64,000 nucleotides of DNA from an uncultured Acidobacteriota bacterium (lineage in GTDB: Bacteria > Actinomycetota > Acidimicrobiia > Spongiisociales > ZC4RG35): contig CAVVCY010000003.1 of assembly GCA_963746905.1 (NCBI GenBank), positions 1,031,296-1,095,295 of the forward strand. The letters run 5' to 3'. The notes under the pieces were generated by a model, which was given only the letters and a program-made list of their open reading frames with translations, did no database searches and had not been told where the DNA came from. The position numbers and the translations under genes are program-made. Below are positions 7,767-62,934 of the stretch, in pieces. Numbering within the stretch: the first letter of the stretch is position 1; every line of letters begins with the position of its first letter.

Positions 7767-8813
7767 CTAACTCCGACGCGACGCCGCCACCCGAAACAGG
7801 GTGCGGGCGCCGTCCCCGAGGACCGAGAACCGGGGATCCTGGGTCTGGCCACGGACCCAACGGATGTAGATCTGCTGGAGCACCACTCCCAACTTCCAGG
7901 TGCCGAAGACGATGTACCACTCGACCGCGTCCATGGCCCGTCCCGACATCTCGGCATAGCGGGCGACCGCCGATTCCCGACTCATCCAACCTGGCGAGTC
8001 GGTCGGCATGGGGTTGAGCGCAGACCGCTCTTCACCAGGGTCATACCACGCAGCCATCAGGGTCCCAACGTCGGCGAGAGGGTCACCCCGGGTGGCCATG
8101 TCCCAGTCGTAGACAGCAACACAGATCCCGGGATCCTCCGCGGCGACCGCCATGTTGTCGAGTCGCCAGTCGTTGTGGAGCAATGTCACCTCCGTGGAAG
8201 AGGGGAGGTTGCTCATGAGCCACCGGGCCACTTCCTCGGCCACCGGGTTGTCATTGTCTTTCGCCTGGTTCCATCGCTCGGTCCACCCATCCACCTGCCG
8301 GATCAGAAAGTCCTCAGGGTGCCCCAGATCGCCCAGCCCGGCACGCTCGGGGTCTACGGCATGGAACTCCGCAAGGGTGTCGACTGCTACCTCCGAGAGT
8401 TTGCGATTGGACTCGGATCCGTTCCACCTCCGAACAGCGGAGGGACCGCGTCACGAACCACGACCCCGTCCCGGCGTTCCATCACGAAAAAGGGCGACCC
8501 GAGCACCGAGTCGTCGTCGCAGAAGGCGAGAGCGCGCGGTGCCTTGGGGAAGGCTCGCCAGAGCCGGGAGAGGACCCGATACTCCCTGGCCATGTCGTGG
8601 GCACCGGGCGCCACCCGGCCGAGGGGCGGTCTGCGCAGCACCAACTCGGATCCGTCGGGAAAGGTGAGGAGGTAGGTGAGGTTTGCCTTGCCACCGGCGA
8701 ACTGCTCGACGATCGGAGCCCCGGCAGGGAGGTCGGGAATAGTCGTTGAGCCACTCCATGAGACGATGGATATCGAATCCTTCGTCGTCTCGAACCGGGA
8801 TGATGTCGCCCAC
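7767..8813 (-). CDS. Aminoglycoside-phosphotransferase-like (APH/ACAD10-type) kinase; two frameshifts
   Basis: QFAGGKANLTY, VLRRPPLG..APGAHDMAREYRVL, LLHNDWRLDN, VYDWDMATRGDPLADVG; start approximate. Confidence 0.75.
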
Positions 8814-52688: not shown

Positions 52689-52762
52689 GGGGCTGTAGCT
52701 CAGCCTGGCAGAGCACCTCGTTCGCAACGAGGGGGTCACGGGTTCAAATCCCGTCAGCTCCA
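52689..52762 (+). tRNA. tRNA-Ala (anticodon CGC); CCA not encoded
   Basis: GGGGCTG/CAGCTCC acceptor with G3:U70, anticodon arm CCTCG-TTCGCAA-CGAGG, T-loop GGTTCAAATCC; TACAAT -10 box at 52669-52674. Confidence 0.95.
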
Positions 52763-52955
52763 CAATTTCACTCTGTATCAGTTGGGGAAACCCAGATCCT
52801 TGTCCGGCTCCAGCCGTGGGTTTCCGTACCGTGATGACCCTGTAGTTCAGATCAGGTCGCTCTCTCGAGTTCACGCTCTTGCCTTTGCGGCAACCCCGCC
52901 AATCCTCCCGATGTTCCGTGTCACCCGTATTCGGGGTCTGTGGCTACTTATGGTG

Positions 52956-56102: not shown

Positions 56103-56143
56103 CGCAACGAGGGGGTCACGGGTTCAAATCCCGTCAGCTCCAC
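56103..56143 (+). repeat. attR-like copy of the tRNA-Ala 3' end
   Basis: CGCAACGAGGGGGTCACGGGTTCAAATCCCGTCAGCTCCAC, identical to 52723-52763. Confidence 0.9.
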
Positions 56144-58735: not shown

Positions 58736-59185
58736 ATGGTTGACACTGCGGGTATCGAAGCCATGGGCCCGGTCGAGTTCACACTTCTCGAATTCCCCAA
58801 GAGGTCATTCGATGGCGAGATCGCCAAGGAGCTGGCGGACCTGACTGACCGTGAGATCGTGTCGATCTTCGACCTTCTCTTGGTGAGCAAAGACGAGGAG
58901 GGCAGTCTCGAGGTGGTCGAGCTGGTCGACGCCGAGCCGGCGATCGCTGAGCAGTTCGCTGAGGTGAACGGAGAGGTGATGTGGCTGCTTAGTAACGCAG
59001 ATATCGCAGAGGCGGCTAAGACCCTCAAACCCGACACCATTGGGATCCTCGTTGTGTGGGAGAACGCCTGGGCACGGAACCTGCGCAGCGCCGTCGCCCA
59101 CGCCGGTGGGCGGGTGGTGATCCATGATCGGCTCGACTCCGACGCGGTGGCAGCCTCCATCACCTCATCATCTGGAGGTCAATGA
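58736..59185 (+). CDS. DUF6325/DUF1269-like protein
   Basis: MGPVEFTLLEFP, IFDLLLVSKD, LVVWENAWA, GGRVV. Confidence 0.75.
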   Translation: MVDTAGIEAMGPVEFTLLEFPKRSFDGEIAKELADLTDREIVSIFDLLLVSKDEEGSLEVVELVDAEPAIAEQFAEVNGEVMWLLSNADIAEAAKTLKPDTIGILVVWENAWARNLRSAVAHAGGRVVIHDRLDSDAVAASITSSSGGQ

Positions 59186-59406: not shown

Positions 59407-59488
59407 GTGCCTGAGATTTCTGCACCCGGGCGAGATTGTTCGCAAGGGAGGGTGTGTTGGTTCATATCTCAGGGGACGGGTGCATCGC

Positions 59489-60595
59489 CTAGATGATTGG
59501 CGCGCCTAACTCCAGTGTCGGCGCGCGTTCGTCCACCGCGAACTGGGACTCGACGGACTCATCCAGACGACCTGAGCGAAGGTCGTTCCAGAAGCCAACG
59601 AGATCCTTCCGGTCGACGGTTAGAAAGGCAGTCCCCTTCACGTGACTGAATTTGAAAGTGACGACATCCCATGTCGCCACCGCTGCTTCGACCCGGAAGC
59701 GGTCCCGAACTACCTCGTCCAGGATCAGCCCGTCGATTGGGCGCCTCGGCGTCGGTCGACGGTCCAGGTCGACCGGAGGAACTACCGCCCGAGGCCCCTT
59801 GGCCTCCATGAGGACTCGATCGGCGATGACCAGTTCCGATTTGTCAACCATCCCCTCCAAGGCCTCTCGCGCGCTGAGCCAAGATCTCGCTACATGGGTT
59901 TCGGCAGCAACGCGGCCGCGCCACGTCATCAGATATGGGTTCGTCGCCGTATAGAGGTCAAAGCCGAAGGCCCGCCGATCGAGGTACCAGCCGTATCGAT
60001 CTATCGCGGGATCGACAGTCGACCTGATCGCCGGCGGGAGGGTTCGTTTCGAAGTTCGACGCTCCGCTACCTCAACACAAGCGAGGGCGGCTCCTGAACA
60101 TAGGAGGATCGCTGCCACGAGATGCTGATCGTCGGCGTATTCCCCGCCCACTTCGACGCGACCACGCCGGGGACGGACGAAGACCCCGGGAGATGAGACC
60201 GCGTCTAAGGCCAACATGATCGCCACCCCGAACCGGCACAGCATCATCCACGAAACCTGCACCACGAGGTGATCGGGCACTGAGACGTTGACGTGGGTCG
60301 AGTAGCCCTCGATCTCGTAGCTCTCCCCGAGTGACTCCATGAGAACCGATCGGCCAATCGCCGCGTGATCCAGAAGTCGCCCTGTGAAGCCAGAGGTCAC
60401 TTGTTCGGGCGGGGTAGCGATCTCTGCCTCCCTTCCATCGGAGGTGATGACCAAGCCCCAAGGTGTGCGAACCGCTCGACCATCACCGGGGTCGATCCGC
60501 CTGCCCCCGAAGTCACATGACTCCAACAGGACACGTGCATCGCACAGACCAGTAGGGCCGCCAACCTGATACTCGTGTTCGACTCCGACGATCAC
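59489..60595 (-). CDS. Divergent PafA/Dop (Pup ligase/deamidase)-like carboxylate-amine ligase
   Basis: [54 protein letters not shown] align in order with PafA motifs. Confidence 0.6.
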   Translation of the reverse strand: [368 protein letters not shown]

Positions 60596-60638
60596 ATCAT
60601 CACAATGTCGTCAAAGGCAAGCACCACACTCGGCCCGA

Positions 60639-61526
60639 TCACGGAACACGGGTGCCAATGAGAGTCAGCGATATCTCGACCGCATCCTCACACCCGTCGC
60701 CCCCAGAGCCCGATCCGAAGGATGTGACGTACCGGAACGACTCGACCGTGATCCCGTCCGATCCGTAGGTGGGCTCGACCATGCCCTCTTCAACTCGAAC
60801 AGGAAATCCGCAGAATTCTCCTCGCTGTTCCATGGTCATGAAATCGACGACATACAGGAGACCGGCCGGTGTCAGACTTATAGCGCGGGGAAATCGGTCG
60901 GCAGAGAGGGTGAGCACGCATGAGTCGGAGCTACAGGCCTCCACTTCAGCGGGCCCATCCACGGCGAACGAGAAAGACCCGTTGCGCAATGCCTCGGTAT
61001 TCACATAGCTGACTGTGTCCTCGGCTATCTCGATTTCGGTGCCGGGGGCGGCCCACACGCCTGCGGTGTTGAGGACTACCAAGTCTTGGCTCACGAACTC
61101 GTAGGCACCTTCGAAGCCCAAGAGAGAAGCAACTGGCAACTGCCCTTCAGCGGTGCTTTCCGTCACGGCCGGGCCGCCAGCTTGCAGGGTCGAGGTCGGA
61201 GACCCCACCGTCGAAGGCGTGCCGCCGGCCAACTGCGTCGTCTCGGTGGATCCGTTGCCACCTCCAAGGGCGATCGCTGCGACGGTGCCGACGGCAACGA
61301 TCACGACGACCGCAACCGGAATCAACCATTTCGGCCGGGACCGAGGGGGACCGGTTGAGGAGGAGCTAAACCGAACCTCGCGAACCTCGGACTTGTCGGA
61401 TCTGAGAGAAGATGCGTCGGTCAGCGCTCCGGTGAGAGGATCCCGCTCGAGCTTCAGGAGGGACTTGGGATCGCCGAGCTCTGTCGTGAACCGAAGACCA
61501 GGGCCGTCAGGTTCCCGGCTTGACAT
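60639..61526 (-). CDS. Single-pass membrane protein with Ser/Thr linker and Cys-containing extracytoplasmic domain
   Basis: RPKWLIPVAVVVIVAVGTVAAIAL TM; four Cys in the C-terminal domain. Confidence 0.65.
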   Translation of the reverse strand: MSSREPDGPGLRFTTELGDPKSLLKLERDPLTGALTDASSLRSDKSEVREVRFSSSSTGPPRSRPKWLIPVAVVVIVAVGTVAAIALGGGNGSTETTQLAGGTPSTVGSPTSTLQAGGPAVTESTAEGQLPVASLLGFEGAYEFVSQDLVVLNTAGVWAAPGTEIEIAEDTVSYVNTEALRNGSFSFAVDGPAEVEACSSDSCVLTLSADRFPRAISLTPAGLLYVVDFMTMEQRGEFCGFPVRVEEGMVEPTYGSDGITVESFRYVTSFGSGSGGDGCEDAVEISLTLIGTRVP

Positions 61527-61725
61527 CGTCGCCGCCGGTCAGCTTCTGCTCGGCATGGTCGACCGTGCGCTCGACCGCACGGTCCTGAGCTTTCTCCACT
61601 AACCGATCGGCCATATCCTGAGCCGCGTCGCCCGCCGAACCGACAATGGTCGTCGACGATTCGATAGTCGCCGTCACAGACTCCACGGCGCCGGCAGCCG
61701 CTCCTAGGTTTCCCTTCTCACCCAT
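61507..61725 (-). CDS. 72-aa small protein, Pup-sized
   Basis: AGGAGG RBS 5 nt before ATG 61725; overlaps the next gene's start by 20 nt. Confidence 0.65.
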   Translation of the reverse strand: MGEKGNLGAAAGAVESVTATIESSTTIVGSAGDAAQDMADRLVEKAQDRAVERTVDHAEQKLTGGDDVKPGT

Positions 61726-61908
61726 CCCCACCTCCTATTTAAGAGAACACGCAACGTAATACCCCCGTCGGTGCTAGTCACAATGCTCAGCCTGCACCGG
61801 GTCTTACCCGATGTGGCCACGGGAAATCATCTTTGGGGGGCGGGGAAGTCACACGCCGGTCGCGCACGCCGCGGCACGCGGGATTCGTCTATTAAGGCCC
61901 TGATTGGA

Positions 61909-62934
61909 CTACCGACCGACAGTGCTCTCGCGGATCACCAGCTCGGCGCGGAGTGGGATGACCACAGGCGCGGTCTCGCTGCCGTCGAACTCAGACGACA
62001 GCCTTCGCACCGCCTGTCGCCCCATTTCCGTGAGTGGTTGCTCTACAGAGGTGAGGGGCGGTGCAAACCAGGCGGCTTCATCGATGTCGTCAAAGCCGGT
62101 GACCGCCACATCTTGGGGAATGCGAAGTCCTCTGTTGCGGAGAACATGCATGGCGCCAAGCGCCATCCGGTCGTTGCCGGCCACCACGGCATCGAGATCC
62201 GGGACGCGGTCGAGGAGGGCCTCCATTGCGGCGGCTCCGCTGGCGGGAGACCAGTCGCCCTCTTCGCAGAGGCCGGGCTCGGCCTCGAGATGGTGCCGCT
62301 TCAGGCCGCGCTCCCACCCCTCCCGGCGGTACTCGGCCTCTTGCCAGTTGACCGGGCCGGAGATATGGCCGATCCGGGATCGGCCAATCGACACCACGTG
62401 GTCAATGACATCCTCGATAGCGGCGAGGTTGTCGACGAGCACGCTCGAGTGTCTGTCCGACACGCCGGCCTTGACGAATACCACCGGGTCATGGTGGTCG
62501 GAAAGCACCGCCTTGATGCGGTCCACCGCCTGCCCAATGGCAGGGACTGACATGATTATTCCGTCGACGTGATGCTCGACCAGGGCGGAGATGGCAGGAC
62601 GCGGATCGTCGAGGCTGTCGCCTTCGGGCAGCTCGGCGATGAGCACCGTTAGCCCGAGACTCGCCGCCTCATCGATGATGCCTTGCAAGGTGGATGCTGT
62701 GCCGGTGTATCGCATGCCGGCGAGGAGCACGCCGATCGAATGGCTGCGCCGGGCCACGAGAGTTCGAGCGACGGCACTCGGCGTGTATCCGAGGGTGGCA
62801 ATAACGCCTTCGACCCGCTCCCTTGTGTCGGCCGCCACATCAGGGCGGTTGTTGATGACGCGGGACACGGTCTGTGTTGACACGCCACTCCGCGCAGCAA
62901 CATCCTTGATCGTGACCCTGCCCGACCCCAACAT
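61909..62934 (-). CDS. LacI family transcriptional regulator
   Basis: VTIKDVAARSGVSTQTVSRVIN, VTGFDD, PPLTSV, LVIREST. Confidence 0.93.
   Translation of the reverse strand: MLGSGRVTIKDVAARSGVSTQTVSRVINNRPDVAADTRERVEGVIATLGYTPSAVARTLVARRSHSIGVLLAGMRYTGTASTLQGIIDEAASLGLTVLIAELPEGDSLDDPRPAISALVEHHVDGIIMSVPAIGQAVDRIKAVLSDHHDPVVFVKAGVSDRHSSVLVDNLAAIEDVIDHVVSIGRSRIGHISGPVNWQEAEYRREGWERGLKRHHLEAEPGLCEEGDWSPASGAAAMEALLDRVPDLDAVVAGNDRMALGAMHVLRNRGLRIPQDVAVTGFDDIDEAAWFAPPLTSVEQPLTEMGRQAVRRLSSEFDGSETAPVVIPLRAELVIRESTVGR

Follow-up and report, generated by a model that had tools for sequence, protein, structure and literature searches.

A compact PafA/Dop-like enzyme encoded in a three-gene module with a small MGEKGN protein and a membrane protein

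Introduction

To our knowledge, pupylation is the only protein-tagging system built on the glutamine synthetase fold, with PafA as its sole type of ligase. Pup ligases are already in use for proximity tagging. PafA and Dop, the latter a depupylase and deamidase, respectively make and break Glu–Lys isopeptide bonds on a small protein, the tag Pup. The carboxylate-amine ligase superfamily, which has the fold of glutamine synthetase (GS), was defined by Iyer, Burroughs and Aravind in 2008, and the other new ligase families of that survey have no Pup-like small open reading frames (ORFs) (PMC2588565). PafA and Dop carry a conserved catalytic aspartate in the loop between strands 2 and 3 (PMC3511204). 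Here we describe a relative of these enzymes encoded in a stretch of 64,000 nucleotides (the window) from contig CAVVCY010000003.1 of the uncultured bacterium GCA_963746905.1. The enzyme is the last gene of a three-gene module on the minus strand, in which it follows the genes for a small protein beginning MGEKGN and for a membrane protein. This arrangement is new here: the original prediction named the enzyme as a possible protein or peptide ligase and did not link it to the partner genes, which make that inference much stronger. The segment and its genes are as follows.

59407..61916, no strand: present/absent segment of 2.5 kb holding exactly three genes (comparison with same-genus genome G327)
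61507..61725, minus strand: small protein, 72 residues, starting M-G-E-K-G-N (ORF; homologous small ORFs lie upstream of the enzyme elsewhere)
60639..61526, minus strand: single-pass membrane protein, 295 residues (aligns to the C-terminal half of fused homologues)
59489..60595, minus strand: PafA/Dop-like carboxylate-amine ligase-fold enzyme, 368 residues, GTG start, coordinates including the TAG stop (ORF and translation)

The enzyme family is large, cross-phylum and unannotated. It comprises 661 clusters at 50% identity with expectation values (E) ≤ 1e-3, or 354 with E ≤ 1e-30, and its members, where sources name them, are called 'hypothetical protein'. Its nearest relatives are PafA and Dop, and it is paired with a small protein that bears a reactive-looking motif. 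That the enzyme is PafA/Dop-like and functionally coupled to the MGEKGN protein can be held with high confidence. The best overall explanation, to which we give a probability of roughly 0.5, is a PafA/Dop-like enzyme of a three-gene module that performs isopeptide ligation.

Relation to described systems

PafA and Dop (PF03136; 4BJR, 4B0R, 5LRT, 7OY3) share several features with the new family. For two family members, no structure matches better than their curved β-sheet cradle of the GS type. The GhExE motif, the aspartate of the strand 2–3 loop, the HxN motif and the arginines are common to both, and each has an additional small domain at the C-terminus that includes a W-D-x-x-V-F strand. 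In both cases the enzyme gene adjoins a gene for a small, largely disordered protein. The family described here differs in that it is tethered to the membrane through a C-terminal transmembrane (TM) helix and ectodomain, either fused or split. It is unlinked to Mpa and the proteasome, occurs in Chloroflexota that have neither PafA nor Dop, and has its C-terminal domain permuted to the N-terminus in one subfamily.

The membrane-inserted Pup ligases of Plesiocystis and Rhodopirellula (PMC2588565) are also unlinked to proteasome genes, are predicted to lie at the cytoplasmic membrane face and adjoin a membrane-protein gene. These are true members of the PafA family: they have a normal Pup gene and, after strand 4, a four-TM insertion. 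The family described here has one TM helix, at the C-terminus, together with a tag of another kind, and does not match PF03136. GCS2 enzymes such as YbdK (PF04107; 1TT4, 1R8G) are similar in size, six-strand core and motifs and provide the second-best structural match, but have neither the PafA/Dop C-terminal domain nor an associated small ORF (PMC2588565). The genome under study has a GCS2 of its own elsewhere. A full-text literature search on 'GEKGN' and on PafA-like, Pup-like and pupylation-like systems returned no description of the enzyme family. The suggestion that it is an undescribed branch is supported.

Fold and catalytic motifs of the enzyme

The AlphaFold2 (AF2) model of the window enzyme has a mean predicted local distance difference test (pLDDT) score of 88.8 and a predicted TM-score (pTM) of 0.88. 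Its elements run from strand 1 (G-V-E-H-E) through the D53/E58 hairpin, a helix, the H101-x-N103 strand and a second helix to the R141/R143 and E148/E152 strands, an order that agrees with the six-strand core of carboxylate-amine ligases (PMC2588565). Three further strands and two helices occupy residues 300–353. A second model was made of the 606-residue homologue P0009, which is 33% identical to the window enzyme (pLDDT 80.7). Foldseek searches of the PDB place PafA and Dop first for both independent models, in support of the fold originally proposed. The window model matches the PafA–Pup complex (4bjr_B) at 2.4e-8, seven Dop entries at 1.2e-7 to 3.8e-6, YbdK (1tt4) at 3.8e-6 and glutamine synthetase at 6e-3. 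Corresponding values for P0009 are 1.7e-6 for Dop, 1.9e-6 for PafA, 1e-3 for GmaS, 2.3e-3 for YbdK and 3e-3 for GS, so that the gap between PafA/Dop and the rest is wider for this model. The Dop structures matched are 5lrt, 4b0r and 7oy3 (1e-7 to 4e-6 across both models). All matches at E ≤ 1e-3 are to PafA, Dop, YbdK and GmaS, as befits a six-stranded curved sheet packed on helices. GCS2 and GS are thus weaker matches than PafA/Dop. The outcome named in advance as contrary to the original prediction, either a best match to GCS2 or another small-molecule ligase that has no PafA C-terminal domain, or no GS fold at all, was not seen.

Profile comparisons used a PafA/Dop alignment (561 columns), for which the sequences came from the genome under study and from six carrier genomes, and a separate GCS2 alignment. 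With hhalign, a profile of the last ~75 residues of the family matches the C-terminal part of PafA/Dop at E 1.5e-4, and all 561 columns at 1.7e-3. It pairs 'v-aTWDxxVF-v' with 'vAANWDSlvFdvG' over a short stretch of 19–22 columns. The same profile finds nothing in the GCS2 alignment (E 0.85). The AF2 model and the profile alignment therefore both give the enzyme a small C-terminal domain like the one of ~70 residues that packs on the ligase domain of PafA/Dop. In a short subfamily (Knoellia, Humibacillus, Dermatophilaceae), the PafA-type small domain is found at the N-terminus, a circular permutation, and because it can be moved in this way the small domain is an integral unit. Loci of this subfamily include L077 4722–8056 (Knoellia locipacati NBRC 109775), L026, L031, L041, L050 and L076. 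In these loci the enzyme gene converges with the MGEKGN gene, a lipoprotein-like gene and the gene of the TM partner, all three of which are on the other strand.

Five regions of the enzyme carry the motifs.

60572..60586, minus strand: strand-1 GhExE motif G4-V-E6-H-E8, predicted Mg/ATP ligands (sequence; motif definition PMC2588565)
60422..60445, minus strand: hairpin T51-x-D53-G-x-E56-A-E58 (strands 2 and 3), with D53 as candidate catalytic base or nucleophile (alignment, AF2, hhalign)
60287..60307, minus strand: strand-4 G-Y-S-T-H101-V-N103, the [HQ]x[NH] motif (alignment; matches H-E-N of Dop)
60140..60175, minus strand: strands 5 and 6, R141-P-R143-x-x-R146-x-E148-x-G-G-E152, putative arginine fingers and acidic ligands (alignment, AF2 strands)
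59531..59713, minus strand: small C-terminal domain, residues ~295–355, three strands including A-T-W-D-V-V-T-F, then two helices (AF2, hhalign)

Most of the superfamily's defining elements (PMC2588565) can be located on the model. The GhExE motif lies on core strand 1 (AF2 strand 2–13), and the acidic residues of strands 2 and 3 are D53, E56 and E58 (AF2 strands 49–53 and 56–60). The [HQD]x[NH] motif of strand 4 is represented by the invariant H101, with N or S at position 103 throughout the family. The strand-5 arginine and the second arginine correspond to R141 and R143 on AF2 strand 137–143 and R146 at the turn; the second arginine belongs to the strand or turn and not to the loop before it. 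Strand 146–152 carries E148-x-G-G-E152 where the superfamily has Ex[RK]x2D or [QH]x4D, with the acidic character retained and the spacing changed. As for the catalytic aspartate that PafA and Dop carry in the loop between cradle strands, its counterpart is D53, invariant in the 53–56 hairpin. A weak local hhalign match to PafA/Dop (E 0.023) pairs D53 with the aspartate of Dop 'YVDHAHPEY', E58 with the glutamate of HPE and H101-V-N103 with H-E-N, the same register as had been aligned by eye.

Conservation was scored on an alignment of 26 sequences with 30–45% identity. Fourteen positions are invariant (T51, D53, A57, E58, G97, S99, H101, R141, P142, R143, R146, E148, R200 and R207), and G4, E6, E8, D38, E56, T100 and E152 are at least 90% conserved; judged on this alignment, the motif residues are conserved far above chance. 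Sequence and models together point to a compact enzyme, belonging to the PafA/Dop branch of GS-fold carboxylate-amine ligases and catalytically intact, with activity predicted.

Standard libraries do not recognize the family. Scans of all three module proteins with Pfam, NCBIfam and PADLOC gave no matches. Library matches to PAC4 (E 0.006) and DUF3558 (7e-4) fall below threshold and were taken as noise. Sequence searches of the PDB, with the single protein and the family profile as queries, returned nothing relevant. The PF03136 and NCBIfam PafA/Dop models find no match at E ≤ 1 in the window enzyme or in the N-domain of ten homologues, and the same PF03136 hidden Markov model (HMM) picks out this genome's true Dop and PafA at 1e-167 to 1e-169. 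The PF04107 (GCS2) HMM does not match the window enzyme, and no Pfam domain was found over the enzyme region of ten long homologues. The family is placed beside PafA/Dop and not within PF03136, because HMM match, domain size, tag type and proteasome linkage were all tested and none agrees with that family.

The small protein

The 72-residue protein is mostly disordered. It contains no cysteine and no aromatic residue, and its C-terminal half is charged and helical. The site in the window is the only MGEKGN-coding sequence in the 2.09-Mb genome. Its gene has a ribosome-binding signal.

61731..61736, minus strand: Shine–Dalgarno AGGAGG of the small gene (sequence), with the ATG at 61725, 5 nt after

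Purine-rich boxes precede the MGEKGN motif in other loci as well. The last 20 nt of the small gene (61507–61526) overlap the start of the membrane-protein gene in a different frame, which suggests that the two are translationally coupled.

In a set of 80 related loci, all taken from genomes that represent their species, we counted how often the small protein accompanies the enzyme. In 41 of them an ORF that begins M(G)EKGN occurs on the same strand within 1.5 kb upstream, at 237–434 nt in 34 of these cases. Ten further loci have such an ORF elsewhere in the locus, which brings the total for the exact motif to 51/80. When the variants seen are also counted (MERGN, MEKTN, MGEKGD, MGEKE., MGEVGN), a small ORF is found in ~69/80 loci overall and upstream in 60/80, compared with 9–10 for the relaxed motif in reverse-complement and shuffled sequence. 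A start codon directly precedes EKGN in 55 of 56 occurrences. All four codons vary synonymously (GAA/GAG, AAA/AAG, GGC/GGA/GGG, AAC/AAT), so the motif is conserved at the protein level. Across all variants (GEKGN, EKGN, ERGN, GEVGN, EKTN, GEKE.), only the glutamate never changes. Beyond the hexapeptide, small proteins of different clades are unrelated, and their C-termini vary (…KPGT, …PQQE, …PDSD). The neighbouring gene is Pup-sized, with conservation at the N-terminus only; it is not a pup gene, which would encode 50–90 residues ending G[EQ]. A Pup-like C-terminal GG[EQ] was considered and rejected: 'QKLTGGD' in the window protein resembles QKGGE but is not conserved in homologues. Natural fusions of tag and enzyme were absent among 179 proteins.

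Two variations on the small gene were observed. In Chloroflexi bacterium GWC2_73_18 (L034 3283, 4034 and 4453), three tandem (M/V)EKGN ORFs stand upstream of a single enzyme gene and resemble an array of alternative tags or precursors. Tags at L055 ~4764, L059 ~4800 and L074 ~4850 (VGEKGNE..., MERGNE..., MERGNV...) have a zinc-ribbon-like CxxC-x9-12-CxxC end (…CVVCGEPRGAARPCPHCGMD) in place of the helical acidic tail.

The membrane partner

The 295-residue membrane protein has a cytosolic tail and a single TM helix, which a Ser/Thr/Pro-rich linker connects to an extracytoplasmic domain containing cysteine. Two of its parts concern us here.

61392..61496, minus strand: cytosolic tail motif L11-RFTTELGDPKSLLKL-E27-RDPLTG...LRSD-K45, docking segment with conserved Glu and Lys (linker alignment)
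61263..61331, minus strand: transmembrane helix K66-WLIPVAVVVIVAVGTVAAIALG-G88 (sequence and hydropathy scan of homologues)

Residues 8–209 align to 364–554 of the fused homologue P0058 at E 9e-9. Because the membrane protein aligns in this way to the C-terminal half of fused homologues, enzyme and membrane part, usually one polypeptide, are split in the window. Exactly one TM helix follows the enzyme domain by ~60–130 residues in 91 of 100 family members of at least 520 residues. The region after the helix is variable in long homologues and partly immunoglobulin (Ig)-like.

Among 94 linker segments, the tail segment '...Q...PGLxD....LLPxER.P..G' retains the glutamate of 'ER' in ~90%, and in the following 'R-x-G-K' the arginine is conserved in ~90% and the lysine in ~80%. 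The window protein has this tail glutamate and lysine as E27 and K45. The P0009 model has the first tail segment ordered on the enzyme, with a block-mean pLDDT of 93–95 for residues 361–400 and 84 for 401–410; the R-x-G-K region is disordered. Residues 477–604 of P0009, which are extracytoplasmic, are modelled as all-β and have weak Foldseek matches to lipocalin-like or small β-barrel proteins (E 0.04–0.17). The model thus gives a weak hint that this ectodomain might be a ligand-binding sensor. Homologue P0101 bears He_PIG/Ig-like repeats in place of a P0009-type ectodomain.

Independence from the Pup-proteasome system

The enzyme family is independent of the Pup-proteasome system. The window, on contig C3, holds no pup, prcAB, arc/mpa or dop gene, as was first noted from its sequence. 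The only Pup_ligase matches of the genome, Dop and PafA, lie with Mpa/ARC on contig C2 at ~147–153 kb, so that canonical pafA and dop do sit elsewhere. The Pup locus on that contig is complete (Mpa/ARC, Dop, Pup, PrcB, PrcA, PafA), and its real Pup has 68 residues and ends QKGGE. Eighteen carrier genomes of the family were tested for Pup_ligase (PF03136). The domain is absent from all ten Chloroflexota/Dormibacterota carriers and from one Lysobacterales metagenome-assembled genome, and PafA and Dop are both present in the Actinomycetota carriers. Across 83 loci, no proteasome gene is conserved near the enzyme. A single locus on a metagenomic contig of actinobacterial origin, L004 11588–13684, has an Mpa/ARC gene (split into two gene calls) and TrmI at ~3 kb from the module. 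This is the sole locus with any neighbour from the proteasome system, and the proximity is judged coincidental.

Proposed mechanism and its alternatives

The following mechanism is drawn by analogy with PafA, GS and GCS. (i) The cytosolic tail of the membrane partner would dock on the enzyme, which is thereby held at the membrane. (ii) The tethered enzyme would bind ATP and Mg via E6, E8, E58, H101 and the R141/R143/R146 cluster. (iii) It would then phosphorylate the γ-carboxylate of a substrate glutamate, most likely that of MGEKGN; the motif glutamate is the probable target because every characterized superfamily member activates a glutamyl γ-carboxylate. (iv) With D53 as base, the acyl group would be passed to a lysine amine, most likely that of the conserved lysine in the tail of the membrane partner, or of lysines in other proteins close to the membrane. 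(v) The product would be an isopeptide-linked adduct of the small protein at the cytoplasmic membrane face, possibly controlled by the variable extracytoplasmic domain. The analysis shows the fold, the conserved catalytic residues, the association of the genes, the architecture and the independence from the Pup-proteasome system; we infer ATP use, the identity of the reacting glutamate and amine, and ligation in preference to hydrolysis from these analogies. The converse pairing, of tail glutamate with tag lysine, may apply instead. Taken as a specific proposal, ATP-dependent glutamate activation with isopeptide ligation involving the MGEKGN tag falls a little short of even odds.

A broader and more tentative idea is that the module represents a second bacterial system for conjugating small proteins on the PafA/Dop fold, independent of the proteasome. 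It would join an N-terminal tag glutamate to a lysine of the tail or nearby under ectodomain control, with a patchy and probably horizontal spread in Actinomycetota and Chloroflexota. Tagging through MGEKGN would then have a polarity reverse to that of Pup. If the family does conjugate proteins, this would be a new post-translational modification, by tagging with an N-terminal motif, in major phyla of soil and water, proteasome-free Chloroflexota among them. It would further shed light on the evolution of PafA/Dop from GCS2-like ancestors, and a compact ligase and its short peptide tag could be turned into a new tool. Cultured carriers exist, namely Knoellia locipacati NBRC 109775 and Tenggerimyces flavus (with a frameshifted copy), and the module has only three genes; the question is therefore directly testable.

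Several observations weigh against isopeptide ligation by a PafA/Dop-like enzyme. Sequence likeness to PafA/Dop falls under every library threshold, and the weak local match described above is all that whole-length hhalign of the family against PafA/Dop provides; this is a low-power test, because a PafA-versus-GCS2 control is equally blind. TM-scores on the query are moderate (0.45–0.56), which fits a domain ~120 residues shorter than that of PafA. The N-domain has ~280 residues, as against ~400 with the Pup-binding groove in PafA/Dop, and a Pup-type binding groove may therefore be missing. In the window, the enzyme begins right at strand 1 with a GTG that has no clear Shine–Dalgarno sequence. 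The conserved element of the tag is N-terminal, unlike the C-terminal G[EQ] of Pup, and 11–20 of the 80 loci have no recognizable small ORF within the fetched DNA. Finally, the tail lysine is conserved in ~80% only, in the alignment of a disordered region.

Four other readings of the module were weighed. Ligation of a small amine is unlikely, yet it is the strongest of these. Here the enzyme would activate the tag glutamate or free glutamate and use as acceptor ammonia, an amino acid, a polyamine or the amine of a lipid head group, for example that of phosphatidylethanolamine; the lipid version would give the small protein a lipid anchor. Small amines are the substrates in every other branch of the superfamily (GS, GCS1/2, GmaS; PMC2588565), GmaS, YbdK and GS are the next-best structural matches, the compact N-domain is similar in size to GCS2, and the membrane tether sets the enzyme beside lipid head groups. 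PafA/Dop are nevertheless better matches by two to three orders of magnitude on both models, and by up to five relative to GS, and the C-terminal domain specific to PafA/Dop is present. A conserved small ORF beside the ligase is just what the metabolite-type families do not have (Iyer et al., PMC2588565), and the tail carries a conserved lysine.

A Dop-like amidase has a lower probability again. Like Dop, such an enzyme would use ADP and phosphate, either to deamidate or cleave the N-terminal motif, for instance at Asn6 or a modified Glu3, or to undo a bond that some other enzyme has formed. The module has a single enzyme of this type and no conserved partner ligase nearby, and the 368-residue protein has no insertion the size of the Dop loop. 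Asparagine does belong to the consensus motif, but it is swapped for D, E, Q, T or I in many variants that always retain the glutamate. Dop is as close as PafA in both Foldseek searches, the C-domain motif is nearer that of Dop (NWDSLVF) than that of PafA (VDWVHLKL), and the chemistries of PafA and Dop can be interconverted by few changes (PMC7947786); these points keep the amidase in consideration.

It is improbable that the motif undergoes intramolecular cyclization in the manner of a ribosomally synthesized and post-translationally modified peptide, with a Glu3–Lys4 or Gly2-amine lactam and the variable remainder as follower or recognition peptide. The motif does contain both glutamate and lysine, as with leader and follower peptides conservation is confined to a short N-terminal 'core' ahead of a variable remainder, and the locus with three tandem EKGN genes is reminiscent of precursor arrays. 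Against this, the small proteins have 50–100 residues with clade-specific conserved helices, no protease, exporter or tailoring gene is conserved nearby, and the conserved glutamate and lysine of the enzyme's own tail are left unexplained. Very improbable is a non-catalytic pairing, in which the enzyme-like domain would serve a transmembrane sensor as its binding module, with the MGEKGN protein as a pseudo-substrate regulator: the cytosolic domain, TM helix and variable ectodomain have the layout of a one-component transmembrane sensor and the module is dispensable in this genome, but all residue classes for ATP/Mg binding and acyl-phosphate chemistry are invariant across phyla, and pseudo-enzymes usually lose such residues.

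The enzyme gene and its start site

The ORF proposed for the enzyme is intact, a 368-residue minus-strand frame with no internal stops. All six peptides quoted from it in the original prediction are found in the translation, and the numbering of E6, E8, D53, E58 and H101 is correct. The source's own gene call (P0002, window 59489–60340) begins at Met86 and gives 283 residues; it removes the GhExE strand and the D53/E58 motif, and with them the first three catalytic strands. Public annotation from Met86 would conceal the ligase motifs. Because homologues cover residues 2 to ~350, the long form of 368 residues is the real protein. The frame opens just 15 nt upstream of the GTG. In Tenggerimyces flavus GCA_016907715.1 (L005 7642–8004 and 7956–9662), a frameshift near 7950 splits the enzyme gene. 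Its GIEQEF strand is out of frame with the remainder, which indicates a pseudogene or an assembly error.

Organization, insertion and distribution of the module

The three genes form a self-contained accessory module. The order small protein, membrane protein, enzyme is also found in a 76%-identical relative, and another relative has the order small protein, enzyme, membrane protein. The 43-nt gap between the membrane-protein and enzyme genes of the window contains a tiny overlapping GTG-ATG-ATG-TGA. Scans of the module for promoters and terminators found nothing. In the same-genus genome G327, the end of the LacI gene is followed by ~44 bp and then by the homologue of window 59407–59140; the same points are 2.5 kb apart in the window, and G327 has the exact empty site. 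The flanks are unrelated to the module: one encodes a LacI regulator together with an FGGY kinase, the other DUF6325 and SulP.

The enzyme family is absent from 40 relatives of this genome (13 of the same genus, 11 of the same family and 16 of the same order) and is present in 4 of 301 genomes sampled across the phylum. Other conserved neighbours (protease, exporter, ATPase, proteasome) were sought in 83 loci, and no gene family is common to more than 8 of them. The DUF6325 protein (58736–59185, plus strand, E 1.4e-9) lies outside the 2.5-kb indel and is not conserved beside the family elsewhere. A repeat of 41–53 bp, a duplication of a tRNA 3' end, appears as duplicated matches at window 56103–56143 and 52711–52763. 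The same repeat is duplicated in the same-genus genome G328 (L119 5133–5184 and 9027–9067), so this islet boundary is common within the genus.

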